Shown: in pieces, positions 34,598-60,367 of the stretch
Layout: every line of letters starts with the position of its first letter
Position numbering within the stretch: the stretch's first letter is position 1
The notes under the pieces: model-generated
Seen by the model: only the letters and a program-made list of their open reading frames with translations
The model's database searches: none
Told to the model about the DNA's origin: nothing
Made by a program: the position numbers and the translations under genes
Assembly: GCA_020350205.1 (NCBI GenBank)
Contig: CP070707.1
Location: 3,163,563 to 3,227,562, forward strand
Origin: a bacterium
Lineage (GTDB): Bacteria; Calditrichota; Calditrichia; RBG-13-44-9
Reading direction: 5' to 3'
Length of the DNA: 64,000 nucleotides

Positions 34598-34633
34598 CAA
34601 TTCGACTCACACCCTTAAATGTAGTTTGCAGAA

Positions 34634-38185: not shown

Positions 38186-38199
38186 GCAAAGGAATCGGT

Positions 38200-39273: not shown

Positions 39274-39301
39274 TTTGTTTAAACCCTTTAGAGGAAAAGG
39301 T

Positions 39302-39517: not shown

Positions 39518-39582
39518 TCAGGTATGATTAAGTTAGATCAGTTTTTTAATTATTCATGTGAAAAATATCTTTACAGGAGTTT

Positions 39583-40758: not shown

Positions 40759-40790
40759 TTGATAAAACCTTATTTGGAAAGGAGATAAAT

Positions 40791-42137
40791 ATGGCATCAA
40801 CAAAAATTGTCCTCTGTATAGTATTTTTCTTGGTGGCATATTCCCACTCTCAGGATCTTCCAGCAGGTGAAGAGGCTTTGGGTACTAAAAAGTATGAACA
40901 GTATGAAAGTCCGACTGTTTGTAAGAGCTGCCATGATAATTTCTATGAGCAATGGAAACAGGCTATGATGTCTCAGGCTTATACTCATCACTGGGATGAG
41001 ATTGAATACTTTAAATTGGCCGTTCCCCATGCAGAGAAGGATGAAAAGGTTGCCGGAGTTAAAGCGGGATGTAACGGTTGTCATGCTCCCATGGCTTTCA
41101 TGGCCGGTATAGTTCCCCCACCTAAACCAGAAGAAAATACGCGTGCGAATGAATCAGTTGCTTGTGATATCTGCCATACGATAATAGGATTTAAAGGAGA
41201 TATTCCTCATAATTTTAATTACATCTCGAATCCAGGAAGAACGAAATACGGTCCGAAACCAGGACTCTCCTCTCCACATCATGATACAGAGTATAACGAA
41301 TTTATTACTCAGTCAGAATTCTGTGGAACCTGTCATAATGAAATGAGTCCTTATGGGGTGTGGGTCAAAGCGACGCAGCTTGAATGGAAAGAGGGACCAT
41401 ATGCCAAAGAGGGAGTCCCCTGCCATCAATGTCATATGCCCAAGGCCAAAGGAAAGAATGCCAAAATGGCTAAGGAAGATATCGTTGCACAACATTTGTT
41501 CCATGGCGCCCATGACCCTGGGAAATTGGCCAGTGCTATTGAATTGAGAATGAATCCTCTGGAAAGAGAAGTCCCCTATGATGGAGTAGTATCTCTCAAT
41601 GTTCAACTTTTCAGTGCTAAACCGGGACACAAGTTCCCGACGGGCTCGGTTGAGGATCGAATTGTCTGGTTACATGTAACCGCAACTGATGCCGAAGGAA
41701 AAAGCTACCACCTGCCGGTGGACAAAAAAAGTTTTGCAGGTGAGGAATATACCATAGCGTCGGATGTATTGGCCTACCAGGATATGGGGATCGCATTGAA
41801 TGATCCCAATTTTCCCGGTGTGCAGCGGGATGGGGTGCCTATTGGGGACCGTATCTTCCGGATGCCTTATTTCGACCCGCAGGGCCGGATGACAATTCAA
41901 CAATGGAATACTAAATCTTTTGGAGTGGATTATCGGATCGGTCCCCGTGAGACGAAAATCGAAACTTTTACCTGGCAGTTACCTGATGATATAGCCCTTG
42001 GAAAAGTACATTTCACCGCAGAATTGAATTATAGCAAACTTGTTAAGCCAGTGGCTGACTTTTTAAAGGTTCCTGCAGAAGAAAGTGAAACGATATTAAT
42101 AAACAAGACAAATACCTGGGTTGAAGTATACGACTAA
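40791..42137 (+). CDS. periplasmic pentaheme c-type cytochrome with ~225-aa non-heme C-terminal domain
   Basis: AAGGAG RBS before ATG 40791. Signal peptide MASTKIVLCIVFFLVAYSHSQ. Five CxxCH motifs (CKSCH, CNGCH, CDICH, CGTCH, CHQCH) lie in the first ~235 residues; the remainder has no heme motif. There is no CxxCK, so it is not a canonical NrfA. Confidence 0.8.
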   Translation: MASTKIVLCIVFFLVAYSHSQDLPAGEEALGTKKYEQYESPTVCKSCHDNFYEQWKQAMMSQAYTHHWDEIEYFKLAVPHAEKDEKVAGVKAGCNGCHAPMAFMAGIVPPPKPEENTRANESVACDICHTIIGFKGDIPHNFNYISNPGRTKYGPKPGLSSPHHDTEYNEFITQSEFCGTCHNEMSPYGVWVKATQLEWKEGPYAKEGVPCHQCHMPKAKGKNAKMAKEDIVAQHLFHGAHDPGKLASAIELRMNPLEREVPYDGVVSLNVQLFSAKPGHKFPTGSVEDRIVWLHVTATDAEGKSYHLPVDKKSFAGEEYTIASDVLAYQDMGIALNDPNFPGVQRDGVPIGDRIFRMPYFDPQGRMTIQQWNTKSFGVDYRIGPRETKIETFTWQLPDDIALGKVHFTAELNYSKLVKPVADFLKVPAEESETILINKTNTWVEVYD

Positions 42138-42150
42138 AAGGAGAAATACC

Positions 42151-43377
42151 ATGCTCAAAAACTTTATTTATATTTTAATATTGATCGTTACTATTTTATT
42201 CATAGCATTGTTTCCGGAGGATGCAGAAGCCATCCCGGCTTTTGCCCGCAAATATAAAGTATCCTGTACTACCTGCCATGCTCCAATACCTAAACTAAAA
42301 CCCTATGGGGCAGAGTTTGCCGGCAACGGCTTTGTGATTCCCGAGGAAGAAAAAGAACGTGACTATATTACTGCAGGTGATAGTCTGCTCTGGCTTAACA
42401 GGAATTTTCCGATTGCCGTGAGATTTGATGCCTATGGGGTATATGATGATAAGGCACCCGTAGAAAACGATTTACAGCTTCCCTGGGGAGTGAAATTGCT
42501 TTCCGGCGGAAATTTGTATAAAAACATAGGGTATTATTTCTATTTTTACCTTTCAGAAAGGGGAGAGGTCGCCGGCATTGAGGATGCCTATATCCACTTT
42601 AATAATATATTTAATACCAATCTTGATGTGATGGTCGGTCAGTTTCAAACCTCCGACCCCCTGCTGAAAAGGGAATTACGTCTTACCTTTGAGGATTATA
42701 CCTTCTATACCAAACGGGTCGGTTTCTCGAAAATCAATCTAACCTACGATCGTGGTATCATGATGCCCTATACAATCGATAAAACCGGTACCGACCTGGT
42801 ATTCTTGGTGGTTAATGGTGCTGGAATCGGGGATGCCGGGGAGGATCGTAAATTTGATGATGATAAATTTAAAAATTATGGATTTAGAATCAACCAGGCT
42901 GTTGGTGAGTTTGCCAGTATCGGCGCTTTTATTTATTACGGAAGAGAGAGGGTTACAGATACTCTGGGTGTCAATGATAATGAAGTGACCTACATTGGCC
43001 CAGATGTCAATTTGACCGTAGGTAAATTCGAACTTACCGGACAGTACCTGTTACGTAAGGATACGAATCCATTGTTTATACCCAGTGCAGAGTCGAAGAA
43101 CACCTCCGCAATCATTGCTGAGATTATCTTTGCTCCTAAAAAAGAACGCTCCCGTTACTACTTCACATTCTTATATAACTGGGTAGATTCTGATCTCAAA
43201 GAAGAGGATTTTGCACCTCTCGCTCCTTATTTTGAATTCAATTCCCTGCAATATCATACCGCGACCTTGAACTGGACTTACGAGTTGGCGCGGAATCTAC
43301 GTTTTCTGGTGGAATTAACCCGGGATATTGAGCTGGAAGCGAACCGTGGGGTTCTGGGAATAGTCAGTGCGTTCTAG
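42151..43377 (+). CDS. outer-membrane beta-barrel protein with single N-terminal CxxCH heme motif (Cyc2-like fused cytochrome-porin candidate)
   Basis: AAAGGAG RBS immediately after the upstream stop, with ATG at 42151. Signal peptide MLKNFIYILILIVTILFIALF. The mature N-terminus is AFARKYKVSCTTCHAPIPKLKPYG, with one CTTCH. The ~360-aa rest shows an alternating amphipathic beta-strand pattern and ends ...LGIVSAF (terminal Phe). Confidence 0.6.
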   Translation: MLKNFIYILILIVTILFIALFPEDAEAIPAFARKYKVSCTTCHAPIPKLKPYGAEFAGNGFVIPEEEKERDYITAGDSLLWLNRNFPIAVRFDAYGVYDDKAPVENDLQLPWGVKLLSGGNLYKNIGYYFYFYLSERGEVAGIEDAYIHFNNIFNTNLDVMVGQFQTSDPLLKRELRLTFEDYTFYTKRVGFSKINLTYDRGIMMPYTIDKTGTDLVFLVVNGAGIGDAGEDRKFDDDKFKNYGFRINQAVGEFASIGAFIYYGRERVTDTLGVNDNEVTYIGPDVNLTVGKFELTGQYLLRKDTNPLFIPSAESKNTSAIIAEIIFAPKKERSRYYFTFLYNWVDSDLKEEDFAPLAPYFEFNSLQYHTATLNWTYELARNLRFLVELTRDIELEANRGVLGIVSAF

Positions 43378-43656
43378 TCGATAGCATGGATTATCAGAGA
43401 ATGGGTTAGGAGCTTTACGGAATCTGGAAGCAGTTGTGAACATTGAATATTTAAGATATAAATCTCTTAAGGTTGTATGATGTGAAGCCTCCGAATTAAT
43501 TCGGGGGCTTTCATTAGAGGAAAATCCCGGCCTGGCTCTAGAAAAATCCAATCCCCTCATATAAAGTGTAACCCAAATTCACCTTTAGCATCTTATATTA
43601 CATATATATCTACAAAAACACCCATACAGTAAGATTTCCGGAGGATAAGTTTTAAC

Positions 43657-44673
43657 ATGAAAAGATTTTTATTAATTCTTATATCTACTGCAATTACCTC
43701 GAATGCCTGGGCCCAGAACGATTCATTGCTATTTGACAACAATATTGTGATTGTAGGAGAAATAAAAAATCTGAATCGAGGGATTATTACCATTGAAACA
43801 GAGTTCAGTGACAGCGACTTCAAAATTGAATGGAATAAAGTAAAAGAAATTTATGGTACCCAGGAATATATTATTACGTTATCCGATGGAAATCGTTTAA
43901 AAGGTTCCATATCGACCGATCCCTCCGAAAAGTCAAAAGTAATAATTAGTGATGCTTATCAGACTTTGGCTGTTAGCTTGAATAACGTGGTTTTCATGAA
44001 ACCATTGGAAGAAGGATTCCTGCAAAAATTGAGTGCCTCAGTGGATCTGGGATTCAATTTAACCAAAGCCAATAATTTAAGACAGCTATCTCTGCGCAGT
44101 AAGGTTGGCTATTTGACCAACAGATGGAGTACCGATGGATTTCTGGATATTACGCGCAGTGACCAGGACAGTATTGCTGCCACCCGGAGAACGGATGCTT
44201 CGGTGGGATTTAACTACTTCCTGGGGAAACGATGGTTTGCTTTTATTTCATCAAAGTTTCTGCAAAGCGATGAGCAGAAACTGGAACTCAGGGCGACTCC
44301 GCTAATCGGTATCGGAAATTATTTCATCCAAACCAATTCAATGTATTGGGCACTTGTGGGGGGTATTGCCAGAACGATTGAGTTTTATACCGATCCGACT
44401 ATCGAAGACAGGAGCAGCAGCGAAGCAAATTTGGGAACCGAGTTAAACTTGTTCGATATGGGTGATTTAGGTTTGGTGACGACTTTGGCGGTCTATAGAA
44501 GTCTCAATGAAGGGGACCGAATTAGGGCTGACTTTAAGTTCGATATCAAATACGATCTTCCACTCGATTTTTATATCAGACTCGGCTATACTCATAATTT
44601 CGACAATCAACCGGTGGAAGGCGCTTCCCGAAACGACTGGGATTTATCGATGACTTTTGGGTGGGAACTGTGA
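43657..44673 (+). CDS. outer-membrane beta-barrel protein (DUF481/YdiY-like)
   Basis: Signal peptide ISTAITSNAWAQ, a ~100-aa N-terminal globular region and then alternating-polarity strands through to the C-terminus. Similarity to DUF481 is by pattern only. Confidence 0.4.
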   Translation: MKRFLLILISTAITSNAWAQNDSLLFDNNIVIVGEIKNLNRGIITIETEFSDSDFKIEWNKVKEIYGTQEYIITLSDGNRLKGSISTDPSEKSKVIISDAYQTLAVSLNNVVFMKPLEEGFLQKLSASVDLGFNLTKANNLRQLSLRSKVGYLTNRWSTDGFLDITRSDQDSIAATRRTDASVGFNYFLGKRWFAFISSKFLQSDEQKLELRATPLIGIGNYFIQTNSMYWALVGGIARTIEFYTDPTIEDRSSSEANLGTELNLFDMGDLGLVTTLAVYRSLNEGDRIRADFKFDIKYDLPLDFYIRLGYTHNFDNQPVEGASRNDWDLSMTFGWEL

Positions 44674-44906
44674 TTATCGGAAACCGTAAGATAACCTGAA
44701 ATCCTGTCTGTGACCGCCTGAGTTTCCAGCAATTGTAAACCACTATATGCTCATCTCTCCGAAACTGAAAGAGCAAGGCTCTCTGGTGTTTCGAAGTTTG
44801 AATTTATGATTTTTTGAATAGGGTTAACAAAAATAGTTGCTATATCCAATTAGGCTCAGTATTATATTTATCTATTATTATTCCTTACATATGATGGAGG
44901 TCCATT

Positions 44907-46265
44907 TTGAAAAAAATATTACTGTTCATTTTGATTTTCCTAATGACGGTTGAGCTTTCTCTTGCACAGGATAATCCTGAGGAACCGTCAGATCCTGTGG
45001 CACCCAAACGGATAGATTTAGCAATTGCTGAAGTGATGGCCAGTAATTTTGTAGCCTGGGCCGGTGCCCGTTATCTTCGGGAGGATAATTACTCTTTTTT
45101 GATCAGCTGGCAATCGGTTGAGGACAATCTCCGCCATGGTCTGGAGTGGGATCCCAATAATTTTGGCACAAATTTTCTTAACCACCCCTATCAGGGCAGT
45201 ACCTATTTTAATGCTGCCCGGACTAATGGTATGAGTTTCTGGGAATCAACCCCCTTTACTTTCGCAGGAAGTTACATGTGGGAAGTCTTTATGGAGCGCG
45301 AATATCCCGCCTACAATGACCTGGTTACCACCACCTGGGGAGGCGTGGCCCTGGGGGAGATATTGTTTCGATTTTCTGAAAATGTATTGGATGACCGCGC
45401 CCGGGGAGGTTCGCGGGTCTGGCGTGAGACGGCCGGCTTTTTGTTAAACCCAGTGGGTGGAGTTAATCGTATTATCAAAGGTGATATGTTCACGACCAGA
45501 TCTTCGGTTAATCATATTAGACGACCCTTCAATGGTTACATCGCGGTCGGTGGGCGTGGTAACCTGGAAGGATCGGATGCTGAAGATAGTAGATTAAGTC
45601 CCTCGTTTCAACTGACCGGTCATTATGGTAAGCCGTTCGAACCCAAATCAAAAATTAAGCCGTATGATTTCTTTGCCTTCCGTTTATGGACCAGTAAGCG
45701 AGATACCTTGAGAAGCACCGTGATTACTGCCTGGGGTACCCTGTTTGGTAAGCAATATGACAGGGAGAATGGGCAGAAACACCTGCTGAGTATTTCCCAG
45801 AATTATGACTATTATAATGCTCAGATTTTCACGATCGGGGCTATGGCTTTTACGACCAATCTATTGTCAAATTGGCCGCTGGGAAAAGGATTCCGCCTGA
45901 TTACGAATCCTGCACTGGGATTTATTGCATTGGGAGCGGGTAATAATGAATACGTAACCTCCTATCAGGGTCGAAATTATAATTTTGGCTGGGGGGCGCG
46001 TGGTAAATTTGAGTTCCTGGTTGAACATCAAAAGTTCGGCAGGATTCTGGGAGATTACAATTATTTCAGTCTCTATACCCGGGAAGGTGCACCGGGTGTA
46101 GACCGATTACATGTCTTTGATGTCAATTACATGATTAAGATATGGCGGCAACTGGGTATTGGAGTTGAGTATTTCTATTATTACCGAAATGCCCATTATA
46201 AAAATGATCCTGACGTCAGAAAGCACCTGAAAGGATTGAGAGGTCTCTTCTCTCTGGAATTTTAA
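44907..46265 (+). CDS. DUF3943-family secreted/outer-membrane protein
   Basis: Signal peptide, then W..DNLRHGLEWDPNNFGTNFLNHPYQGSTYFNAAR; the N..HPY.G..YF core is the DUF3943 signature seen in Bacteroidota-group proteins. The C-terminus is beta-rich and ends SLEF. Confidence 0.55.
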   Translation: MKKILLFILIFLMTVELSLAQDNPEEPSDPVAPKRIDLAIAEVMASNFVAWAGARYLREDNYSFLISWQSVEDNLRHGLEWDPNNFGTNFLNHPYQGSTYFNAARTNGMSFWESTPFTFAGSYMWEVFMEREYPAYNDLVTTTWGGVALGEILFRFSENVLDDRARGGSRVWRETAGFLLNPVGGVNRIIKGDMFTTRSSVNHIRRPFNGYIAVGGRGNLEGSDAEDSRLSPSFQLTGHYGKPFEPKSKIKPYDFFAFRLWTSKRDTLRSTVITAWGTLFGKQYDRENGQKHLLSISQNYDYYNAQIFTIGAMAFTTNLLSNWPLGKGFRLITNPALGFIALGAGNNEYVTSYQGRNYNFGWGARGKFEFLVEHQKFGRILGDYNYFSLYTREGAPGVDRLHVFDVNYMIKIWRQLGIGVEYFYYYRNAHYKNDPDVRKHLKGLRGLFSLEF

Positions 46266-46295
46266 AAGATTTATCAATCAAAAAAGAGGACTATC

Positions 46296-46931
46296 ATGAA
46301 AGCATATCTTTTTATTATAATCACTATCATTCTGATGATCTCTTCTCGGGCGATCTCACAACGGGTAGAAATTGCATTAATGACCGGTTATCAGATGGGA
46401 GGTATACTGGATGAGACCACGCAACAGGAGGGGATTTTCACCCCGGGTGACGCACTGGGTCTCACCGCTTCGGGTAATTTCGGAGTCATGCTTGATATCC
46501 GTTTGGCAAAGAAAGCGTTCCTGGAACTTTCAATAGACCGCCAGCCGACCAACCTGAATTATCATGAAGCTCCGGATGGAGAAATTTCCCGCTCTATGAA
46601 AATTAATGTAGATTATTACCAGGCAGGTATTATCTATGACTGGTCCTCCAGCTATCTTCGACCTTTTTTTGGATTGGCGATTGGTCTGGTACATTTGGCA
46701 CCGGATGAAAATCTGGATAGCGAGACACGACTAAACTTCTCCCCTTTAATGGTCGGCGTCAAAACCTATGCCAGTAAATATTTCGCTTTTCGGTTACATG
46801 CCCGTCTGCTGATCAGCGATGCTCCTGAAAAAATCTATTTTAAGGATACGGACGGAGAAGGTTTCTATCATGAAAAAAGTACCTTTATGACCCAGATACA
46901 GTTTGGGGTGGGCATGGTGCTGTCACTTTAG
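46296..46931 (+). CDS. small outer-membrane beta-barrel protein (OmpA-like barrel/porin-family fold)
   Basis: 211 aa with a signal peptide and eight or more amphipathic beta strands of alternating hydrophobicity. Confidence 0.45.
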   Translation: MKAYLFIIITIILMISSRAISQRVEIALMTGYQMGGILDETTQQEGIFTPGDALGLTASGNFGVMLDIRLAKKAFLELSIDRQPTNLNYHEAPDGEISRSMKINVDYYQAGIIYDWSSSYLRPFFGLAIGLVHLAPDENLDSETRLNFSPLMVGVKTYASKYFAFRLHARLLISDAPEKIYFKDTDGEGFYHEKSTFMTQIQFGVGMVLSL

Positions 46932-47212
46932 AAATTAAAGGAAGATTCAAGATATAGAATTTGAGATTCGAGGGGGGCATGCATCAAGATAGAAAATAAA
47001 AAATGAACTACTATATATTTAATTTCTCTAATCCTACGATTTACCATATTATGTCGGTATTTTTCCACATCTTTAATCTGAAATATTGCAGCATAATTTT
47101 TTAGACAAAAATTTAATCAGCACGAATAATTTATTTTATAAATTTTTTATGCCATACTAACCAGCTCGAAATTTAGGATTCACGTTTAAAAATATACCGA
47201 AGGAAATTAATA

Positions 47213-50200
47213 ATGCGCATTTATTTTATTCTTCTGCTTATTCTCACCTATTTTGCCCAGGCCCAGGAAGTTCTTCCGCCCAGTGATGGCGGTTTCACAA
47301 AATCTATGGGGCAACCTCAGATATACAAACCGTACATCGGTTTTTCGCTGGGACACAGTTATCCGGCGGTGGATGATAAATTAATTGCCCAGTTCAGGTT
47401 AGGCGTGTACCGGGATTTAATGAATCCCATGTACAGTGTACTGGGTATTTCCGCGGAAGGGTATATAGGGAGTCTTCGCACTAATGAAGATTTTGGATTC
47501 CGGGCGATGATTGAAATGCCTGCATTACGACTGGCAGGCGGACTTGATTACAATTATGAAGTTGAGCGTCTTGATTTTATCCTTCGGATAACAGCTGCGG
47601 TGAGGCGGGGAGGTATTTTTGGAAGGGGGACTGACCTGCGCCTTGAATGGTTACCGGCGCGAGGAAATACCTATAATCTGGGAATCGGAATACCTATTTT
47701 CCAACCTAATCGCGGAAAAACCCGCCCTAAAAGGGACTATGTCAGACTCACAGCCCCTAAACCACCACAAATTCCGAAGGTGCCTGGTATTCCGGCCTTG
47801 GAGGAAGCTCTCAATAATATCCGTGAAAGTGCCCGCTGGATTAATCGGCTTACCACACCCTATTATGATTATGCAGGGGCCGATCCCTTTGCCGCGATTG
47901 CTGACTCCATGAAAGCACTAAAAAAACATTTGAATTCCCGTAATATCAATTTCCCGAATGGCAGGAACAGTGAAGCAGAGGTTCGCTTTTTCCATCAGGA
48001 ACTGGAGCGCGCATTTTCAATGGCAATTTTGGGCGAGTCGCTGGTGATGGGAGAGTCGGTTAATGAGGGTAGAGAGGTTGCGGCACAGGCAAGAAATATT
48101 ATTCTGGAGAGAATATTATATCCCTATAACCGTTTACTTGGTCAGAAAAAAAATAGTGATTCCATATTGGAGTTTGCCAAAACAGCCCGCGGTAAGATGG
48201 CTCGCTGGATGACACAATCTGATGTAATTCCACCTGAAAGAATTGATGCAGTCCGTTATGTATTCCAGGAAATTATAGCAATTATCGAAGAAAATCGTGC
48301 CTATTCAGCCAAAATCTGGAAGGATTCCAGACTGGTATGGCTTCCCCTGCAATATGCGCTTCTCCCAGAGCAGCATGACAGTCAGCAAGAGCTGGATAAA
48401 ATTATTGAGGGTGCCACCGGTCAGCGATTTACTGAGGGGAATAAAATCTGGTATATCATTAATGAAGAGTTTCAATATGAGGTGGCTCGACAGATCCATG
48501 CTGCCCGTGACTATCATATATTATGGATTCATGATATTGATGCGTTTGATGCGGGTGGAGACCCCGACACACTTACTTTTCTGCAGATCAAGGATTCCTA
48601 TTTTCAGGCTATGATAGACCGAATCAGAGAATATGACGATACCGGCAAACTTCCCGTTTTTATGATTTTTCTGGATCAGTTTTTTTATCAGGCCAATAAA
48701 ACTCGAACCTGGATGAGGTTGTTAGAAAAACCCCTGACCTATAGTCTCAAGTTATCCGACAAATCCATGGAACAAGCGCTGACGGAAAAACTGACAGAAC
48801 TGCGCCGAGCAATCAATAGGTCGAAACTGTTGCAGGCGGAGATTCAGGAATACGGGGAAGAATGGCTGCATAACCTGATAAAGGTCCACGTGAATATTAC
48901 CAATCCGGCGGATATCTCATTCTGGAGCAGGGGTATCCTTCCCATACTTGGAACCCCCGATCTGATTTCCCGGGATCATCGCAAAATATCATTTTATGAC
49001 GTTTCGGAGGAGGATCCTTACCAGGGTGTCATGATGATTGGGGGTATGGGTATCGGAGAACATTATGCTGGCCCAACCTGGGATGACCGCGGTATACTCG
49101 TCCAGGGTCCTGCCGCACTTGATTTAAAATATGCGGCCAGGCAACTTCTGCTGGATCAAGGATTTGAAGAACAGGAAATTCCCTATCCGTTGCAAATAAG
49201 ATCTAAAGCGAGTGATTATGCAAGGGCGGTGCAGGATACAATTCGAGTCTGGAGTAAAAAAGGATTCACCCTGGCAAAAGTAAAGCAATTACATAATCAA
49301 ACCGGTTATCATCCCAAAATGGTCAGCGTTGCCAATGCAGTGATGTATTCATTAATGCCCCGGCGAACCTTTCAGATTATTCCGGATAGTTTATGGGATA
49401 GTGATTTCTGGTTGGCCATTCTTCTCGGTAATTCTTTACGGGGAGGCTGGATAAGCATTCAGGCACCGGCTCTGGAAAATGCTCCCAGTGCCGGTTTTCC
49501 TCAAATGTCCCGAACCCAGGAGTTGTTGGCCCGGCATGTAGTGATCCAGGAGATATTGTCAGAAGAGATTGAAGCAGCAGGGGGAATGTTCAGAGCAACA
49601 TTATACAACCCGGATGAGGATGTGGCCGATTTTGCCGGACAACTGAAAGAGTTTAAACATCGTTTCGAGAGTGACAAAAATTTACAGGAACTTTTTCCAT
49701 TTCATCCTTCCATATACCGTATGTTGGACAGTATGATCCAGGTATTAAGTGAACAGCAAATCGCTTATCTGTCCTCTGACGCCGTGGTGAGAAAACCAAA
49801 ACTCCACGCAAAAATTAATTTGTTCGCTTCTCTGGATGTGGTCCGTGATTTATTGATCATGCCTGAGTTTGCCTCGGTTTTCAAGTCTTATATACTGCAG
49901 CGAGTTGCTCAGGCCACAGAATATGGAGAAGTCGGAAATGTCAGGGAAAAAGCAGAGAAATTTTTACAGGTAGCCAGAGACTGGGTTATAAAATATCGGG
50001 ATAATACACCCCAGGAGGACCTGGAAAAGTTGGTATTTTATTTTAAAGTGGGAACCATGAATCAGAATTATCGCAGTAAAGTGTTCGATGGAGAAGCGGT
50101 GGTATTAATATCGGGGGTCTATAGTATTTATGGTTTAATGGATATGATTTTCCGAATCGGTTTAACCACACCGATAGAAGACCTGGAAACTTTAGAGAAA

Positions 50201-50263
50201 CATCTTCCCCAGTATGGGGGTACGAAAAGAGCTATTGGTCGCTGGATTCGAACCACACTCTAG
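47213..50263 (+). CDS. large secreted protein of unknown function (1016 aa)
   Basis: Signal peptide MRIYFILLLILTYFAQAQ, then a beta-rich first ~170 aa and a ~840-aa mixed alpha/beta remainder. I recognised no confident family. A weak PLD-like pair (HAKINLFASLD ... GTMNQNYRS) has non-canonical spacing. Confidence 0.6.
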   Translation: MRIYFILLLILTYFAQAQEVLPPSDGGFTKSMGQPQIYKPYIGFSLGHSYPAVDDKLIAQFRLGVYRDLMNPMYSVLGISAEGYIGSLRTNEDFGFRAMIEMPALRLAGGLDYNYEVERLDFILRITAAVRRGGIFGRGTDLRLEWLPARGNTYNLGIGIPIFQPNRGKTRPKRDYVRLTAPKPPQIPKVPGIPALEEALNNIRESARWINRLTTPYYDYAGADPFAAIADSMKALKKHLNSRNINFPNGRNSEAEVRFFHQELERAFSMAILGESLVMGESVNEGREVAAQARNIILERILYPYNRLLGQKKNSDSILEFAKTARGKMARWMTQSDVIPPERIDAVRYVFQEIIAIIEENRAYSAKIWKDSRLVWLPLQYALLPEQHDSQQELDKIIEGATGQRFTEGNKIWYIINEEFQYEVARQIHAARDYHILWIHDIDAFDAGGDPDTLTFLQIKDSYFQAMIDRIREYDDTGKLPVFMIFLDQFFYQANKTRTWMRLLEKPLTYSLKLSDKSMEQALTEKLTELRRAINRSKLLQAEIQEYGEEWLHNLIKVHVNITNPADISFWSRGILPILGTPDLISRDHRKISFYDVSEEDPYQGVMMIGGMGIGEHYAGPTWDDRGILVQGPAALDLKYAARQLLLDQGFEEQEIPYPLQIRSKASDYARAVQDTIRVWSKKGFTLAKVKQLHNQTGYHPKMVSVANAVMYSLMPRRTFQIIPDSLWDSDFWLAILLGNSLRGGWISIQAPALENAPSAGFPQMSRTQELLARHVVIQEILSEEIEAAGGMFRATLYNPDEDVADFAGQLKEFKHRFESDKNLQELFPFHPSIYRMLDSMIQVLSEQQIAYLSSDAVVRKPKLHAKINLFASLDVVRDLLIMPEFASVFKSYILQRVAQATEYGEVGNVREKAEKFLQVARDWVIKYRDNTPQEDLEKLVFYFKVGTMNQNYRSKVFDGEAVVLISGVYSIYGLMDMIFRIGLTTPIEDLETLEKHLPQYGGTKRAIGRWIRTTL

Positions 50264-50630
50264 AAAAACCTTTCACTAATAAATCAGTAATTCGACATGG
50301 ATATTAGACACGGGAGACAGGAGACCGGATAACAGGGTGATTGAAATGGTTTTTTTAAATGTTGAACCTGAGCTAATTTCAGTTTAATAAAATGGTATCT
50401 TTTTAGAATAATATCATCCTGAATAAGCCATATTGTCTTCTCCCGTCGGGGACACAGTCAGAGAACATGCTGGTAATAAGCAGACGACAGGACTTATTTC
50501 CTTCGGAACAATAATTGCCTGATAAATTTTTGGATCTGCGAAAATCTGTTTTTTTCTTCGTCAACTGTGTCCTATTTTACACTCCCAAAATTTTCATTTA
50601 ATTCGGTTTCACGAATACTTGAGGAATAAT

Positions 50631-51356
50631 GTGAATGATAATAAAGTTGCCTTAATCACCGGAGCCAGTCGCGGAATTGGTCGAGCCATCGCCCTGAAAT
50701 TTGCAAAAGAGGGAATAGCAGTGGCACTGACCGCCAGGGATGAATCGCAAATGAAAAACGTGTCCGATGAAATATCTGCGTTGGGAGGAATTCAGCCCCT
50801 GGAAATTCCGGCGGATCTGCGAGATATCTCTCAGATTCCTGCCATTTCAAAACGGGTAATCAATGAATGGGGCCGGATCGATATTCTGGTGAATAATGCA
50901 GGGCTGGGATATTTAAAACCTTTTCTGGAAATCAAGCCTGAAGAATTTCAGGAAATGCTGGATGTCAATCTGCGAGCCTTGTTTTTGCTGACTCAGGATG
51001 TTCTTCCCCATATGATTGAAAGGAGAACCGGAAATATTGTGAATATTGCTTCATTGGCAGGTAAAAATGGCTTTAAAACCGGAACCGGTTATGCAGCCAC
51101 CAAATGGGCCTTGAGAGGTTTTGCCCAGTGTCTGATGTTAGAGGTTCGCGAATATGATATAAGGGTAATCACAATTTTTCCGGGATCCGTTGAAACAGGA
51201 TTTGGCAGCGGTGGTGTGTCTCCGACCGGTACCCCCAGTCAGAATAAGATTCAGTCTGTCGACATCGCGGAGACCGTCTATCTGGCAGTAAATATGCCAG
51301 ACCGCACCATGCTGAGTGAGATTGATATGCGTCCCAGTAATCCGGCAAAAAAATAG
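50631..51356 (+). CDS. short-chain dehydrogenase/reductase (SDR) family oxidoreductase
   Basis: TGASRGIGRAIA cofactor motif, NNAG, and catalytic S...YAATKWA (YxxxK). The ORF is open from TTG 50619; GTG 50631 follows a GAGGA RBS. Confidence 0.8.
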   Translation: MNDNKVALITGASRGIGRAIALKFAKEGIAVALTARDESQMKNVSDEISALGGIQPLEIPADLRDISQIPAISKRVINEWGRIDILVNNAGLGYLKPFLEIKPEEFQEMLDVNLRALFLLTQDVLPHMIERRTGNIVNIASLAGKNGFKTGTGYAATKWALRGFAQCLMLEVREYDIRVITIFPGSVETGFGSGGVSPTGTPSQNKIQSVDIAETVYLAVNMPDRTMLSEIDMRPSNPAKK

Positions 51357-51478
51357 CTTTGGAGGCGGTCTGATTTTTTGATTTGCGGAAGGTTTAGTAA
51401 ATGTAAGTATGTACTTTGTTATTCATATGAGAAAAGCACCCGAGAACACCAGGAACGAAAAGAAATAAGGAGGCTAGC

Positions 51479-51934
51479 ATGTTAAAAGTAGGTGATAAAG
51501 CACCCGATTTTAAAGTACTCTCGGATCAGGGGAAAGAGGTAACTTTATCTCAGTTCCTTGGAAAAAAAGATGTGATCCTTTATTTTTATCCCAAAGATAA
51601 TACCAGCGGCTGTACCAAGGAAGCTTGTTCCTTTCGGGATAATATGCCCCGGTTTGACACCAAAAAGGCCGTGGTCTTGGGAGTAAGTCCCGATAGTGTT
51701 AAATCTCATCAGGGTTTTATCCAGAAGCAAAATCTCAATTTCAATCTGTTAAGCGATCCCGAACATAAAGTGGCGGAAGCCTATGGTGCCTGGGGTGAAA
51801 AAAGTATGTATGGGAAAAAATACATGGGTATTTTACGCTCTACTTTTATTATCGGCAAAGACGGAACCATTAAAAAAGTCTATGAAAAGGTAAAACCGGA
51901 GGGGCATGCCGAGGAAGTTTTACAGGCGCTGTAA
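51479..51934 (+). CDS. bcp: thiol peroxidase Bcp (peroxiredoxin Q type)
   Basis: LYFYPKDNTSGCTKEACSFRDN with peroxidatic and resolving Cys in GCT...C arrangement; 151 aa; AAGGAGG RBS. Confidence 0.85.
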   Translation: MLKVGDKAPDFKVLSDQGKEVTLSQFLGKKDVILYFYPKDNTSGCTKEACSFRDNMPRFDTKKAVVLGVSPDSVKSHQGFIQKQNLNFNLLSDPEHKVAEAYGAWGEKSMYGKKYMGILRSTFIIGKDGTIKKVYEKVKPEGHAEEVLQAL

Positions 51935-52088
51935 AATTCCTTTCACAGTTTATACCCGTACTTTAATTATTCAGTTGTGGATGCAGGTCGGGTTATTGCT
52001 GTATACTGTAGGCAGTTCAGTTAGCATGAACTAATTTAGAAATTTATTTATTAATTCCAATTTTGTACCAATTAAGAGTGTTTCAGGA

Positions 52089-52826
52089 GTGACCAAGAAA
52101 TCAGACAGTGAGATGTTATCGATTGTCAGGGGGAAAATCAAAGAGGGGGCAAATTCCGAGCTCTCGCTTACCCGTCCCTTTGTATCCCTCTCCTTTGCTC
52201 AAAGCCTGGATGGGAGTATCTCTCTGCATCCTTCAGCCCCGGTCAGATTAAGCAATATTCATTCGCAAAGTTTTACGCACAGTTTACGTGCCATCCATAA
52301 TTCGATTCTCATCGGTATCGGTACCCTTCTTGCTGACGATCCCCAGCTTACTGTACGTCTGGTTTCGGGGGAAGATCCTATACCGGTAGTGGTGGATAGC
52401 CATCTTCGTTTTCCGACTCATTCCAAGCTGTTGCGGAAAAACACGATCAAACCATGGATCGCCTGCACGTCTGAAATAAGTGATGGGAAAGTTGACATTA
52501 TCCAGAAAAGTGGTGGAGAGATAATTCCCTTGCCGGCTTTATCCAATGGATGGGTCAATTTATCTTCGCTGATGCAACATCTTCATGATAGAGGTATTCG
52601 CTCGGTGATGGTTGAGGGGGGTGCCCGTATTATCACCAGTTTTTTACGGGAGAGACTGGCGGACCAGATTATTCTGACGATTGTCCCGATGATTCTGGGG
52701 GGATTTCGGGGAGTGCGGGAGCTTGAAAACATCGTCTCCCCCTTTATTACAAATCTTAAAAATATAAATTATGAACTGATCCAGGATAATCTGATTGTCC
52801 GGGGTGATCTTAATTATCAGGTATGA
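52089..52826 (+). CDS. stand-alone RibD C-terminal-type (DHFR-fold) pyrimidine reductase
   Basis: RPFVSLSFAQSLDGSIS matches the RibG/RibD reductase-domain N-terminal consensus (P.V.LK.A.SLDG.I); Rossmann-like remainder (MVEGGARI). No deaminase domain is present. It uses a GTG start. Confidence 0.6.
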   Translation: MTKKSDSEMLSIVRGKIKEGANSELSLTRPFVSLSFAQSLDGSISLHPSAPVRLSNIHSQSFTHSLRAIHNSILIGIGTLLADDPQLTVRLVSGEDPIPVVVDSHLRFPTHSKLLRKNTIKPWIACTSEISDGKVDIIQKSGGEIIPLPALSNGWVNLSSLMQHLHDRGIRSVMVEGGARIITSFLRERLADQIILTIVPMILGGFRGVRELENIVSPFITNLKNINYELIQDNLIVRGDLNYQV

Positions 52827-53875
52827 TGAAAACCCAGAAACTTTTTTTTGAAAAAAAGAAGACCATTGTAATTCACGAGGAAAGATTGGGATCTCCGGGT
52901 CCCGGGCAGGTCCTGGTTGAGGCGAAGTATTCAGCAATCAGTACCGGTTCCGAAATGGTATTGTTCCGCGGTGATTTCCCGGAGGGGATGACCACTGATA
53001 TGTCGCTCAATTCCCTGGCAGGAGTCATGAAATACCCGCTTTCTTATGGTTATGCACTGGTGGGGAAGGTTATTGAAATTGGAAAAAATACAGATCCGGA
53101 ATGGCTGGATAAAAGTGTCTTTTTGTTTCATCCGCATCAGTCATATATCGTGGTTCCTCAGACCGAACTTTTCCTCATCCCTCCGGATCTCAATGAGAAA
53201 AATGCGTTATTTCTTCCCAATATGGAAACTGCCATCGGATGTGTTATGGATGCGGCGCCGCTTCTGGGAGAAAATGTTGTCATTTTTGGACAGGGAGTCG
53301 TGGGTCTTCTGACAACATCCGTGCTGGCAAAATATCCCTTGAATCGGCTAGTTGCGGTAGATCCGTTGGAGAAAAGAAGGATAACCGCAAAAAATATCGG
53401 GGCGAATGCTGTATTCGATCCAGGAGATAAAAATTTTTTTGACGAAATTCACGATATGTTTCGTTCGAAGACACATCTAACAGATCAGCAAAGTGGTCCT
53501 GATCTCATATTTGAAATGTCCGGAAATCCAGAGGTTTTAAATACGGCTATTTCTATTGCCGGTTATCATAGCCGTATTATCGTTGGATCTTGGTATGGAA
53601 CGAAAACCGCCCATTTGAACCTGGGTGATAGATTTCATCGGAATCGGCTGCGGATTATCAGCAGCCAGGTGAGTACCATTCAGCCAGACTTACGGGGACG
53701 CTGGAATAAGGAAAGGCGGATGGAATTGGTATGGTCATGGTTGAAGCAGGTCACTCCTTCGAGATTGATTACCCATTACATTCCATTTTCCGAGGCACAA
53801 TCTGCTTATGCCTTGTTGGATGAACAGCCGGAGCAAGCCTTACAGGTTGTTTTGACATATGAAGGGAGAACCTAG
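52823..53875 (+). CDS. medium-chain dehydrogenase/reductase (MDR) family oxidoreductase, non-classical Zn site
   Basis: GroES-like N-domain, then GYALVGKV in place of the GHE..G motif, and Rossmann VVIFGQGVVGLL. It overlaps the upstream gene by 4 bp and abuts the next. Confidence 0.65.
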   Translation: MMKTQKLFFEKKKTIVIHEERLGSPGPGQVLVEAKYSAISTGSEMVLFRGDFPEGMTTDMSLNSLAGVMKYPLSYGYALVGKVIEIGKNTDPEWLDKSVFLFHPHQSYIVVPQTELFLIPPDLNEKNALFLPNMETAIGCVMDAAPLLGENVVIFGQGVVGLLTTSVLAKYPLNRLVAVDPLEKRRITAKNIGANAVFDPGDKNFFDEIHDMFRSKTHLTDQQSGPDLIFEMSGNPEVLNTAISIAGYHSRIIVGSWYGTKTAHLNLGDRFHRNRLRIISSQVSTIQPDLRGRWNKERRMELVWSWLKQVTPSRLITHYIPFSEAQSAYALLDEQPEQALQVVLTYEGRT

Positions 53876-54252
53876 TGTATACAGTGACTGTAATCCGGGA
53901 TTTTATGGCACAACATTATTTAATTGGTGGTGACTGGGGAGATGAAAACAACTGGCATACCCATCATTATGAGGTTGAGGTACAGCTGCAGGGTAAACAG
54001 CTGGATCGGCATGGGTATCTGGTCGATATTGTTGAAATAGAAGACGCTCTGAGCCAGGTAATCTGGTATTTCAAAGACAAAACTCTGAATGAATTACCGG
54101 AATTTAATCAGCTAAATCCCAGCATCGAACATTTTTCCCGAATCATAGGTGAAATGTTTGCCCGGAAAATTTCCACACAAAATTTGACTGCCCTGGTTCT
54201 CAAGTTATGGGAACATGAAGCCGCCTGGGCATCCTATACATTGAAATTTTAG
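53875..54252 (+). CDS. 6-pyruvoyl-tetrahydropterin synthase/QueD-fold protein lacking the catalytic Cys
   Basis: 125 aa. FMAQHYL and NNWHTHHYEVEV reproduce the QueD/PTPS zinc-His layout (H...HxH), but the position of the catalytic Cys (C-x3-HGH) is occupied by Glu (DENNWHTHH). Confidence 0.6.
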   Translation: MYTVTVIRDFMAQHYLIGGDWGDENNWHTHHYEVEVQLQGKQLDRHGYLVDIVEIEDALSQVIWYFKDKTLNELPEFNQLNPSIEHFSRIIGEMFARKISTQNLTALVLKLWEHEAAWASYTLKF

Positions 54253-54354
54253 ATAGGTATTTTCCCGGCTATTTATGTCTGAGCAAATGATGATGTTTCC
54301 TTAGATATATGAATGTTTATGCATGTCTGTTTATAATTTTAAGATATAATCAAA

Positions 54355-55383
54355 ATGAAATTCCAATTCTTCCTGCCAGATATTTTAGATTTTCCCACCG
54401 GCGGTAATATATTTAACCAGCATTTCATGCAACAACTGGCCCGATCTCACGAAGTAGATCAGATCATTGTATCACCAAAAAAAAAGGTTAATATACCAGA
54501 CACAGTAGAACTGGAAACCGATACCTGTTGGCTGATCGATAGCCTGTTAACAGGTCATCAGGAATTAATTAAAAGTATAGCGGACATCAATATTTCGTAT
54601 GGGAAATGGCTGTTGGTCCATTATCTGAATATGCTGGATCCCGCCCATGCGTCTGGTCCTGATACCGATGAAGAGAGGAAGAATTTAGCTCACTTCGACG
54701 GCTATATTGTAACCAGCCGGTATTCGAAAAATCAATTGATGAATAACGGAATTCCCGCAAGAAATATTGTTGTCATTCAACCGGGAATCAATGAAAGATT
54801 TTTGGTAAGACGCAAGCCCCGCATAGTCGTACAGTTACTCACGGTCTCCAGCATTTTCCCCGGGAAAGGTTTGTTGGAATTTCTGAAGGTTCTGGAGAAT
54901 CTGTCCGATTTACCCTGGCAATGGATTCTGATAGGTGCGGACGAGCTTGATCCTGAATTTACAGCGGAGTTTTTACGACACATCGGCAGCAGCCGTTTGA
55001 AAAATCGTATCCAGATTCTGGGACCGCTTTCTCAGGTTAGCCTTTTTCAGATCTATAAGCAGAGTGATATATTTGTGCTGAATTCGCGATTTGAGTCCTG
55101 CAGTATGGTTACCATGGAAGCTATGAGTTTTGGATTGGCCATTCTGGCGAACGAGGTGGGAGGATTGCCGGAATTGGTGCAATCTCAGGAGAACGGTTAT
55201 CTGGTTCCGCCGGGAGATAGAGATCAGTTTAGCGAAGTTTTAAGGAAGTTGATCTCCAAACCTGATTTGCGAATCTCACTGGGAGAAAAAGCATTCCATA
55301 GCAGCCGTTCTTTTCCGAGTTGGCCGCAATGTGCGAAAAAATTTTTAAAATTTTTAGAATCTCACCCAACACCGCAGACATAA
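54355..55383 (+). CDS. GT4-family glycosyltransferase
   Basis: N-terminal DFPTGGNIFNQHFMQQLARSHEV and the C-terminal GT-B donor domain with E-x7-E (ESCSMVTMEAMSFGLAILANEVGGLPELV). Confidence 0.75.
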   Translation: MKFQFFLPDILDFPTGGNIFNQHFMQQLARSHEVDQIIVSPKKKVNIPDTVELETDTCWLIDSLLTGHQELIKSIADINISYGKWLLVHYLNMLDPAHASGPDTDEERKNLAHFDGYIVTSRYSKNQLMNNGIPARNIVVIQPGINERFLVRRKPRIVVQLLTVSSIFPGKGLLEFLKVLENLSDLPWQWILIGADELDPEFTAEFLRHIGSSRLKNRIQILGPLSQVSLFQIYKQSDIFVLNSRFESCSMVTMEAMSFGLAILANEVGGLPELVQSQENGYLVPPGDRDQFSEVLRKLISKPDLRISLGEKAFHSSRSFPSWPQCAKKFLKFLESHPTPQT

Positions 55384-55499
55384 CGGACTTATAATTAAAA
55401 TATCCGATGGTATGTGCAAATTCAAGCATCTTAAATTTTTGGTGTTGTTTGTATCATGAAATCTTTAATATAAAAATAAATTAAATTATATTTTTTGAA

Positions 55500-57821: not shown

Positions 57822-57825
57822 ATTA

Positions 57826-60326: not shown

Positions 60327-60367
60327 TTTTAACTTGAATTAATTTAACTGATTCATGATGGGAATAA

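Follow-up and report, generated by a model that had tools for sequence, protein, structure and literature searches.

Few enzymes of the Gram-negative outer membrane (OM) are known (PagP, PagL, LpxR, OMPLA, OmpT, joined in 2026 by the lipoprotein ClsO), and glycerophospholipid head-group chemistry was long held to take place at the inner membrane only. ClsO, a cardiolipin synthase exposed on the OM surface of Acinetobacter baumannii and further Proteobacteria, is recognized by a lipobox Cys signal, by its pair of canonical HKD motifs and by similarity to ClsC in BLAST, and it sets a precedent for cardiolipin synthesis by a PLD-family enzyme at the OM (Herrera et al., PNAS 2026, PMC12846801). 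A second body of work concerns the YfiM-Griddle Lipocone proteins (DUF3943), which are predicted to modify OM lipid head groups and have already been linked to OMP barrels and to lipoprotein synaptojanin-like phosphoesterases, the latter association having been credited with 'a less clear functional role'; the same study describes HKD-Cls plus synaptojanin-like proteins as a conserved lipid module (PMC12419801).

In the 64-kb stretch of DNA that we analyzed (hereafter the window), a complete gene on the + strand (47213..50263, stop codon included) codes for a 1016-aa protein that is a divergent member of the PLD (HKD) superfamily fused to an apparent eight-stranded OM barrel anchor, which we refer to as barrel-PLD. 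The ORF has an ATG start in the ORF listing and was judged real; an identical NCBI entry (100%) exists from a MAG ('hypothetical protein JSW33_13515 [bacterium]'), and the long, well-formed reading frame with a signal peptide that the initial annotation had described is borne out by the ORF listing and by 58 homologues. A look-up of contigs encoding the exact protein gave no record, and a promoter and terminator scan around the gene did no better than on shuffled sequence.

We found at least 434 homologues of ~1020 aa. The family amounts to about 1000 clusters (963 at 50% identity, with representatives at E<=1e-3), mainly from Gemmatimonadota, Krumholzibacteriota and allied diderm phyla, and not from Proteobacteria. 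Conservation was assessed on 58 aligned homologues (A1) and on the 35 most divergent full-length representatives (A4, 24-40% identity). The 80 family loci that were fetched all came from MAGs. This large conserved family is invisible to current annotation: among the matches listed, all named NCBI members are 'hypothetical', and three of the 120 listed homologues carry the JGI label 'cardiolipin synthase-like'. Neither Pfam nor NCBIfam gives a match at threshold for the protein, its single lobes or its homologues, the native protein has nothing at E<=1 against Pfam PLDc/PLDc_2, and searches of all PDB sequences with the family (phmmer and profile hmmsearch) returned chance matches alone (E >= 0.09). 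At the level of sequence, it was thus correct to say that the protein has no recognizable family.

Nevertheless, the protein belongs to the PLD superfamily, an assignment from which the initial annotation had refrained. Structure matches to the predicted model cover both lobes of the two-lobe alpha/beta PLD fold with its pseudo-twofold symmetry, lobe N at aa 403-660 (48419..49192, +) and lobe C at aa 680-1016 (49250..50260, +), where a sub-threshold PLDc_2 signal also emerges after in-silico deletion of an insertion (below); an hhalign comparison of the two lobes revealed no sequence trace of internal duplication. Lobe N holds a canonical first motif of the HxK(x)4D type, R587-D-H589-R-K591-I-S-F-Y-D596 (48971..49000, +, from alignments and verified in the translation), in which H589, K591 and D596 are invariant in both the 58 and the 35 divergent sequences. 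This motif was absent from the initial account. It is followed by G611-M-G613-I-G615-E-H-Y (49043..49066, +), a non-canonical stand-in for GSxN with G613 and G615 invariant and G611, E616, H617 and Y618 at least 90% conserved.

Three patches had been singled out earlier as conserved, and all three are indeed present and conserved. However, the first of them, W438-I-H440-D441 (48524..48535, +, translation verified), probably does not form a catalytic motif of its own. It sits where the second strand of lobe N (residues 434-438) ends, and the start of that lobe (GNKIWYIIN...ILWIHD) aligns weakly to residues 3-49 of ClsB, at the beginning of the ClsB PLD domain. It may instead be the equivalent of PLD 'region I'. 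W438, H440 and D441 are invariant in the 58 homologues, and H440 and D441 are so in the 35 divergent representatives as well.

The other two patches are the halves of a second HKD motif. The HxK half, H865-A-K867 (49805..49813, +, from alignments and verified in the translation), has its His and Lys invariant in both sets, while the motif Asp, four residues past the Lys, is replaced by A872 (Ala or Ser in the family). It is separated by a helical insertion of ~68 residues (aa 874-941; 49832..50035, +; helices 874-881, 886-902, 910-930 and 934-937 in the AF2 model) from G947-T-M-N950-Q-N-Y-R954-S ... D959-G-E961 (50051..50095, +), which corresponds to the GSxN..RS..DGE half. All homologues have the insertion, at similar length and with variable sequence except for a conserved P884. 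In the second half, G947, N950, R954, G960 and E961 are invariant and S948, S955 and D959 at least 90% conserved in the 58 homologues, and of these, G947 and N950 show no variation in the 35 divergent ones either. The second motif is therefore not contiguous, and retains H865, K867, G947, S/T948 and N950. The splitting of PLD-like elements had been seen correctly in the initial annotation, with 79 residues lying between K867 and G947, and the check that it proposed, on the HAK His and the GTMN Asn, came out in favor of a real active site, since both are invariant in the 58 and the 35 homologues. What it took as a reason against PLD is an insertion into the second motif of a protein whose first motif is canonical.

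Consistently, when the insertion is removed in silico, a PLDc_2 match appears over HxK..GSxN (E 0.027; 14.8 bits where the cut-off is 27), and weak PLDc_2 matches of 13.9-15.7 bits are found at the GSxN element of two homologues (P0065 and P0010). The 1016-aa protein stays below the Pfam gathering threshold for PLDc/PLDc_2, a shortfall that lies with the sequence models and not with the fold. Accepted superfamily members also vary their second motif, as with HKN in Tdp1. A Tyr variant of the HKD motif occurs in ClsD (PMC12846801).

With no canonical GSxN in lobe N and no motif Asp in lobe C, catalytic competence is likely rather than certain. It is very improbable that the protein is a catalytically inactive PLD-fold scaffold, as FAM83 and arguably poxvirus F13 are, that tethers the OM to periplasmic partners or has a structural role. 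Pseudo-enzymes of this fold typically miss one or both His, whereas here both His, both Lys, N950, D596 and E961 show little or no variation across about 1000 clusters down to 24% identity, the mark of an active site that has been kept.

The protein starts with a Sec-type signal peptide (aa 1-17; 47213..47263, +), MRIYFILLLILTYFAQA followed by Q, with predicted cleavage between AQA and Q. Read by eye, the same n/h/c-region layout ending in A-x-A before Q is present in 58/58 aligned homologues, and no lipobox Cys is conserved across them. The mature N-terminus carries a conserved PPxxGGxTxSxGQP segment (aa 19-37; 47267..47323, +), in which P23 and P35 are invariant and G26, G27 and G33 at least 90% conserved in the 58 homologues, and which would lie on the periplasmic side, adjoining the catalytic body. 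Next comes the barrel (aa 38-161; 47324..47695, +), then a linker with a conserved QPxxGxTRPxxD and a Pro-rich stretch (aa 162-193; 47696..47791, +; G168 and R171 invariant, T170 and P172 at least 90% conserved in the same 58 sequences) that has no regular secondary structure in the AF2 model. Between this linker and lobe N, the model shows an all-helical domain (aa 194-402; 47792..48418, +) for which we could not detect any structural or sequence relative.

Eight strands are modelled by AF2 within residues 38-161, in agreement with the earlier impression of a beta-rich, barrel-like N-terminus. Per-column hydropathy over 58 sequences indicates that each strand is two-faced (mean KD +0.95 to +3.5 versus -0.96 to -1.8), with conserved charged and Gly residues on the polar face and W48, Y113, W146 and F154 on the hydrophobic one; this predicted pattern is that of the amphipathic eight strands of integral OM barrels. 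The segment also resembles solved OM barrels by Foldseek, at marginal E-values, and its profile aligns weakly by hhalign with that of the adjacent small OMP (E 0.002, probability 14%). Searching 31 barrel segments against Pfam beta-barrel OMP families gave no match at E<=1, and in Pfam they produced two chance-level matches, each from a single member, to KOW6_SPT51-2 (E 0.12) and OEP (E 0.4). From these data, the N-terminal barrel resembles an integral OM anchor, and the enzyme is therefore most likely tethered to the OM and facing the periplasm, the periplasmic orientation of its catalytic body following from the general rule for even-stranded OMPs. Its earlier description as secreted or extracellular is thus probably wrong.

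Eight-stranded OM barrels include enzymes (PagL and PagP) and anchors (OmpA, OmpX, NspA, OmpW and OprF-N). With respect to typical OMPs, the loop pattern of barrel-PLD is reversed: its presumed extracellular loops are unusually short (2-6 residues), whereas its periplasmic turns are long and conserved. Moreover, its appendage is an enzyme of 850 residues and not a peptidoglycan-binding domain. A lipid-hydrolyzing enzyme covalently fused to an OM barrel, as predicted here, recalls the type Vd proteins PlpD and FplA, where a patatin-like lipase is joined to a POTRA domain and a 16-stranded Omp85-type barrel and the passenger is secreted. However, type Vd fusions have a patatin passenger first and the barrel last, while barrel-PLD has the barrel first and an HKD enzyme after it. 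We also considered autotransporter-like secretion of the enzyme, and dropped it because an eight-stranded barrel is unable to translocate a folded domain of 850 residues.

Like ClsO, barrel-PLD is predicted to be a PLD/HKD enzyme exported past the inner membrane, attached to the OM and performing energy-independent head-group chemistry. However, ClsO is a lipoprotein of about the size of ClsC, surface-exposed and proteobacterial, whereas barrel-PLD combines a Sec signal peptide (AxA then Q; no Cys is conserved across the 58 homologues) with a predicted integral barrel and periplasmic orientation, belongs to Gemmatimonadota and allied phyla, and adds a 200-residue helical domain and a split, non-canonical second HKD motif. 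The features that define ClsO are thus not those of barrel-PLD, nor did we detect sequence similarity to Cls proteins: homology to Cls (COG1502) does not extend across both PLD domains, and the family profile aligns to E. coli ClsB over 42 residues at the lobe start, at a sub-significant level (hhalign E 0.03, probability 1.6%). Compact two-lobe PLDs of solved structure (vaccinia F13, 9fhk; a bacterial PLD, 7e0m; PssA, 3hsi and 8yr5; Streptomyces PLD, 2ze4; P. aeruginosa PldA, 7v53) share 10-14% sequence identity with it; they have no OM barrel, while barrel-PLD has the ~68-residue insertion in its second HKD motif and GxGxGEHY in place of GSxN. A literature search for a barrel-anchored PLD or a cardiolipin synthase of Gemmatimonadota returned nothing.

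The gene lies on the same strand as an 'OM island' that begins with a DUF481 OM protein (43657..44673, +; Pfam E 4.7e-20), a homologue of which adjoins the barrel-PLD gene in one locus (L073), making this link weak. Directly upstream are a DUF3943 (YfiM-Griddle Lipocone) protein of 452 aa ending in LFSLEF (44907..46265, +; Pfam E 8.9e-38) and a small OMP-barrel-like protein of 211 aa with a signal peptide and weak NCBIfam OMP-barrel matches (46296..46931, +). DUF3943 homologues (E 1e-47 to 1e-55) are also found near the barrel-PLD gene in five loci (L007, L008, L009, L011 and L015), and homologues of the small OMP in L001/L006, L069 and L033. Of the family loci, 37 are non-redundant and have 8 kb or more of flank; among these, 15 have an EEP (synaptojanin-like) gene within a few kb, 5 have DUF3943 and 3 have the small OMP, and the arrangements are convergent, divergent or co-directional. 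None of the three neighbours is seen in over half of the loci whose flanks are good. Many EEP neighbours have lipobox-like sequences at their N-termini, and their profile aligns full-length to YbhP (E 1.3e-16). This is reminiscent of ClsB-YbhP(-YbhN) in E. coli, where an HKD enzyme is likewise genetically coupled to an EEP-family phosphoesterase. However, ClsB and YbhP are cytoplasmic or associated with the inner membrane and have no signal peptides, whereas barrel-PLD and its EEP partners are predicted to be exported. An EEP HMM run over the whole 64-kb window found no EEP gene, so that the EEP linkage of barrel-PLD is drawn from homologous loci.

This gene context favors a lipid substrate over a nuclease role. 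The initial annotation had proposed a hydrolase or nuclease; a lipid-acting enzyme agrees with the neighbours, and the nuclease half of the proposal is less favored by them. We regard it as distinctly unlikely that barrel-PLD is a nuclease of the PLD family, tethered to the OM or periplasmic and comparable to Nuc/NucT, Zucchini or PLD3/4, degrading incoming or scavenged DNA or RNA for nutrition or defence, with the EEP lipoprotein as a second nuclease or a phosphatase. It is rather unlikely, too, that it is a PLD-type phosphotransferase or hydrolase acting on phosphodiester-linked molecules of the envelope other than bulk glycerophospholipids (polysaccharides anchored by phospholipid or polyprenyl phosphate, phosphodiester-linked LPS or lipid A decorations, or lipid carriers) and attaching or releasing surface polymers at the OM. 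The large helical domain and the insertion in the second motif, neither of which is seen in simple phospholipases, could accommodate a bulky head group, and genes for a GT4 glycosyltransferase and for a membrane protein of the sulfatase family follow a few kb downstream in the window. However, unrelated redox and riboflavin genes separate these two from the barrel-PLD gene, no glycan-pathway gene recurs beside the family across the 84 loci examined, and we know of no PLD-family precedent for envelope-polymer chemistry. Glycosyltransferases do occur among Griddle partners (PMC12419801).

Our preferred reading, to which we give an even chance, is that barrel-PLD, anchored in the OM and facing the periplasm, acts as a phosphatidyl transferase or hydrolase, analogous to the lipoprotein ClsO but with a barrel as its anchor. 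After Sec export, the N-terminal eight-stranded barrel would anchor the enzyme in the OM, with the helical domain and the ~610-residue catalytic body hanging on the periplasmic side. By analogy with all characterized HKD enzymes, H589 and H865 would meet across the lobe interface; one His would attack the head-group phosphodiester of a glycerophospholipid, most simply in the inner leaflet of the OM, giving a phosphatidyl-histidine intermediate, while the other would protonate the leaving group and K591, K867 and N950 would hold the phosphate. The intermediate could be resolved by water, yielding phosphatidic acid, or by a second alcohol in a transphosphatidylation, for example producing cardiolipin from PG/PE. 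Such chemistry is feasible in the periplasm because HKD enzymes need no nucleotide energy. Going beyond the motif invariance, the predicted PLD fold, the predicted barrel with its transmembrane-type pattern and the gene linkage, this scheme infers the membrane insertion of the barrel, the periplasmic orientation, the lipid substrate and the outcome as transferase or hydrolase. The lipoprotein EEP (synaptojanin-like) phosphoesterase, the DUF3943/YfiM-Griddle Lipocone and the small OMPs would probably be its partners in an OM head-group remodelling module.

Whatever its reaction, the predicted fusion of a PLD-type core to an OM barrel characterizes a family without a Pfam domain, and our seed alignment and motifs may help its annotation (RDHRK ... 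D ... GxGxGEHY in lobe N; HxK-[about 70-80 aa]-GSxNxxYRS-x3-DGE in lobe C). More tentatively, and with less than an even chance of being right, we propose a new class of integral OM enzyme: an HKD phosphatidyltransferase on its own eight-stranded barrel, making cardiolipin or swapping head groups in Gemmatimonadota, Krumholzibacteriota, Zixibacteria and related phyla, with lipoprotein EEP and YfiM-Griddle Lipocone as a dedicated module. If true, this would provide a catalytic partner for the YfiM-Griddle Lipocone and the lipoprotein synaptojanin-like phosphoesterase, and would represent a new anchoring solution for enzymes of this kind. It would also be an independent, convergent counterpart of proteobacterial ClsO, extending OM lipid synthesis and remodelling to poorly studied phyla and making extracytoplasmic phospholipid synthesis widespread among diderms. 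Our results suggest that in some little-studied bacterial phyla, phospholipid head groups are remodelled at the outer membrane itself.

The gene considered here, which we call barrel-PLD, lies at 47213..50263 (+) of the window as an uninterrupted ORF of 1016 aa with an ATG start, and the ORF listing of the window exactly reproduces the coordinates and length of the initial annotation. Its product is identical to a protein from a metagenome-assembled genome (MAG) deposited at NCBI as 'hypothetical protein JSW33_13515 [bacterium]', encoded on a 4.06-Mb contig. The earlier view that it belongs to no recognisable family is correct at the sequence level, since searches with the protein against Pfam, NCBIfam and all PDB sequences (phmmer), and with the family profile against PDB sequences, gave chance-level matches only.

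An AlphaFold2 model built from an alignment of 58 homologues (A1, 39-79% identical to the query) is of high confidence along its whole length (mean pLDDT 91, pTM 0.91, no segment below 50). The top Foldseek matches to this model in the PDB are PLD-superfamily enzymes only (probability 1.00 over ~650 alignment columns), namely phosphatidylserine synthase PssA (E 4e-8), human PLD1/PLD2, Streptomyces PLD, PLD3/4 and Moritella PLD. As all of these belong to the same superfamily, residues ~403-1016 are modelled as a two-lobe PLD fold, with lobe N at aa 403-660 and lobe C at aa 680-1016, and we consider it nearly certain from fold and motifs that barrel-PLD is a member of the PLD superfamily. It nevertheless falls outside the curated sequence families, showing neither Pfam PLDc/PLDc_2 nor Cls/COG1502-level homology, and no residual sequence similarity was detected between lobe N and lobe C.

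In lobe N, R587-D588-H589-R590-K591 followed by D596 are invariant in A1 and form a textbook HxK(x)4D motif, downstream of which G611-x-G613-x-G615-E-H-Y replaces GSxN. The second motif is split into two halves, HxK at 865-867 and GSxNxxYRS...DGE at 947-961, separated in A1 by an insertion of 68-80 residues (874-941 in barrel-PLD, a bundle of four short helices in the model), and its Asp position is occupied by Ala or Ser. These coordinates were confirmed by translation, and in the model the HxK elements directly precede strands 592-595 and 868-873, while GSxN comes after strand 942-947. Deleting the insertion in silico yields a sub-threshold PLDc_2 match across both motif halves (E 0.027; 14.8 bits, cut-off 27), and two homologues give comparably weak PLDc_2 matches on the GSxN half.

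The initial annotation had singled out three patches, WIHD, HAK and GTMNQNYRS, and all are indeed conserved in A1, with W438, H440, D441, H865, K867, G947, N950 and R954 invariant; the first HxK(x)4D motif (R587..D596) was absent from its list. Among the 35 most divergent full-length representatives (alignment A4, 24-40% identity), H589, K591, D596, G613, G615, H865, K867, G947 and N950 are still invariant, together with N410, H440, D441, D452, K702, W728, D977 and R132. The His of HAK (H865) and the Asn of GTMN (N950), whose loss in homologues was to count against the earlier proposal, are therefore unchanged in both alignments. An inactive scaffold is at odds with catalytic residues that are all invariant, and this possibility seems very improbable. 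Concerning WIHD, the only alignment of the family profile with E. coli ClsB (E 0.03) covers 42 residues where lobe N begins and places 'GNKIWYIIN...ILWIHD' opposite ClsB 'GNKIQLLEN...ETFIWFED'; this short alignment suggests that WIHD may correspond to PLD 'region I', the second, conserved strand of the lobe, and not be a catalytic motif in its own right.

All 58 members of A1 carry a Sec-type signal peptide ending in A-x-A|Q, and no conserved lipobox was found in any of them. A conserved PPxxGGxTxSxGQP segment follows, then eight antiparallel strands within residues 38-161 of the model. Per-column hydropathy over the alignment shows every strand to be two-faced (mean Kyte-Doolittle +0.95 to +3.5 versus -0.96 to -1.8). 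Residue identity is variable on the hydrophobic face, which has the aromatics W48, Y113, W146 and F154 at strand ends, and the polar face bears the near-invariant E82, Y84, G86, D93, G95, R97, G110, D112 and R143. Transmembrane barrels have a conserved polar interior and a variable, lipid-facing hydrophobic exterior, whereas soluble barrels show the opposite. Residues 19-185 modelled separately (pLDDT 84, pTM 0.72) match OmpA, OmpX, NspA, PagP and designed transmembrane barrels in Foldseek, at marginal E-values (2e-3 to 2e-2) and TM-scores of ~0.5; no barrel segment matched the Pfam beta-barrel outer membrane protein (OMP) families, and the small OMP encoded next to barrel-PLD shows only weak similarity. 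Residues 38-161 very probably constitute an integral 8-stranded outer-membrane anchor.

Even-stranded OMPs have both termini in the periplasm, and a domain of 850 residues cannot pass through a barrel of eight strands, so the enzyme body should face the periplasm. Loops on the presumed outer side are very short (2-6 residues); on the presumed periplasmic side the turns are long, and their sequence is conserved (e.g. R132-R-G-G-x-x-G-x-G139). The high pTM suggests that, in the model, the barrel is rigidly docked onto the remainder of the protein.

A word-indexed search found at least 434 homologues, nearly all ~1020 aa with full-length coverage and nearly all devoid of a precomputed Pfam domain. 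The NCBI names shown are 'hypothetical protein' without exception, and 'cardiolipin synthase-like' is a JGI label on three homologues among the matches listed. When the profile was run exhaustively against 1.84 billion representatives clustered at 50% identity, 963 clusters matched at E<=1e-3, 438 of them at E<=1e-30; full-length representatives include the N-terminal region in the profile match or are equally long there. A few members, P0168 (1275 aa), P0217 (1081 aa) and P0206 (1054 aa), have 90-290 additional residues before the barrel region, which could be mis-called starts or an added domain. Species-representative genomes contain 372 loci with a relative, the best GTDB one being only 58% identical to barrel-PLD, whose source genome is absent from that set. 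The 80 loci that we fetched all come from MAGs of diderm lineages, mostly Gemmatimonadota, the remainder being Krumholzibacteriota, Eisenbacteria, Zixibacteria, Aminicenantes, Desulfobacteraceae, Fibrobacteraceae, Nitrospirales and one Akkermansiaceae bin.

In the window, barrel-PLD is preceded by three genes on its own strand. The first codes for a DUF481 OMP (43657..44673, +), and the second (44907..46265, +) for a 452-aa DUF3943 (YfiM-Griddle Lipocone) protein (Pfam E 8.9e-38) that has a signal peptide and whose C-terminus (...GLFSLEF) is OMP-like; its residues 184-452, after the Lipocone domain, are probably a fused OMP barrel, an arrangement already known from this family. The third codes for a 211-aa OMP-barrel-like protein with a signal peptide (46296..46931, +; weak TIGR04565 and TDE1717-like matches, E ~0.01-0.05), 281 bp from barrel-PLD. 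The genes further downstream (SDR, peroxiredoxin, riboflavin and others) show no obvious connection.

Directly upstream of this OMP island, three tightly packed, overlapping genes (39583..43377, +) code for an ODP/metallo-beta-lactamase-family protein (391 aa), a multihaem cytochrome c (460 aa, with Cytochrome_C554 and MtrC-like matches) and a 418-aa protein without Pfam match; they look operon-like and could together be a unit for electron transfer outside the cell or in the periplasm. Adjacent phosphate acetyl/butyryl-transferase and acetate/butyrate-kinase-family genes (37286..39273, +, 7-nt overlap) point to a fermentative acyl-phosphate pathway. About 7.5 kb downstream of barrel-PLD, a 605-aa protein (57826..59643, -) has a C-terminal sulfatase-family domain (aa 329-526) after a ~300-aa N-terminal region, the LtaS/EptA/OpgB-like architecture known from membrane phosphoglycerol or phosphoethanolamine transferases, and could thus be a further enzyme acting on head groups in the envelope; its ORF shares 110 nt with the next one (57066..57935), and its annotated start is therefore probably too far upstream. 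The window (1..64000) contains no tRNA or tmRNA genes, and the predominance of + strand genes and the steadily climbing cumulative GC skew are consistent with one replichore.

We clustered all ORFs of 83 homologous loci and the window. The commonest neighbour of barrel-PLD is an EEP (Exo_endo_phos) protein (23 loci), many with lipobox-like N-termini, although no EEP gene occurs within the 64-kb window. When redundancy is removed and a flank of at least 8 kb is required, 37 loci remain, of which 15 have EEP, five DUF3943 and three the small OMP. In five Gemmatimonadales loci DUF3943 homologues adjoin the EEP lipoprotein genes beside barrel-PLD. The gene order in Gemmatimonadales is barrel-PLD(+), 185-aa ORF(-), EEP(-), DUF3943(-); a different clade has EEP(-) and a 220-aa ORF(-) diverging from barrel-PLD(+), with the small OMP downstream, and small-OMP homologues recur close to barrel-PLD in loci L001/L006, L069 and L033. 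The persistence of linkage through these differing arrangements argues for functional association. Three families without Pfam match, c7 (~185 aa; L007, L008, L009, L011, L026, e.g. L009:9121-9675 -), c13 (~220 aa, e.g. L001:7208-7867 -) and c4 (~548 aa, e.g. L001:11077-12723 -), the last two in L001, L069 and L029, are found repeatedly next to, or in between, barrel-PLD and EEP genes and may be further parts of the same module.

The E. coli K-12 annotation confirms a ybhP(EEP)-clsB(HKD)-ybhN operon, and the EEP neighbours give full-length alignments with YbhP (E 1.3e-16). They are just as close to exonuclease III, and Tdp2 and sphingomyelinases are also matched, so that, judged by sequence, this likeness is generic EEP similarity. 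A tethered PLD-type nuclease would be compatible with the capacity of EEP proteins to be nucleases and with fold scores that do not discriminate between nuclease and lipid enzyme, but the rest of the gene context is lipid- and outer-membrane-themed, and we regard a nuclease as quite improbable.

DUF3943 corresponds to the YfiM-Griddle Lipocone, predicted to act on outer-membrane lipid head groups, nearly always joined to OMP barrels by fusion or linkage, and often found with a lipobox-containing synaptojanin-superfamily (EEP) phosphoesterase, an association deemed functionally unclear (Burroughs and co-authors, eLife 2025, PMC12419801). The same study describes a conserved module that couples a synaptojanin-like phosphatase either to an HKD cardiolipin synthase or to a Wok Lipocone, and its supplementary tables list no HKD protein among the Griddle partners, as would be expected if the barrel-PLD family escapes profile libraries. 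The Lipocone proposals, and also the unexplained helical domain and insertion, hint at substrates elsewhere among the envelope molecules with phosphodiester links, for instance lipid-anchored glycans; we hold this to be rather unlikely.

All our functional statements on barrel-PLD are computational. The best-supported reading, which we give an even chance, is an outer-membrane-anchored, periplasm-facing HKD enzyme acting on glycerophospholipid head groups; our confidence in the lipid substrate and the periplasmic orientation is even to slightly better. Such an enzyme would act on the phosphodiester-linked head groups of glycerophospholipids in the outer membrane, cleaving them off or swapping them via a phosphatidyl-histidine intermediate, the outcome being either hydrolysis to phosphatidic acid or transfer to give cardiolipin or another head group. 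HKD phosphatidyl-histidine chemistry requires no ATP or CDP-activated donor and therefore suits the periplasm. A precedent for PLD-type lipid synthesis beyond the inner membrane is ClsO, a ClsC-like lipoprotein that makes cardiolipin at the outer membrane in Acinetobacter and other Proteobacteria (Herrera et al., PNAS 2026, PMC12846801). However, ClsO is defined by a lipobox, canonical dual HKD motifs and similarity to ClsC, and barrel-PLD lies outside this definition.

Literature searches for a barrel-anchored PLD or a Gemmatimonadota cardiolipin synthase returned no description, and we found none published of the barrel-PLD architecture, i.e. a signal peptide, an 8-stranded OM barrel, a helical domain, lobe N (HKD plus GxGxGEHY) and lobe C (HxK, helical insertion, GSxN). 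If our reading is true, barrel-PLD would represent a new type of integral outer-membrane enzyme and would fill the HKD gap in the gene set predicted to remodel outer-membrane lipids; the recent ClsO concept, too, would reach further phyla.
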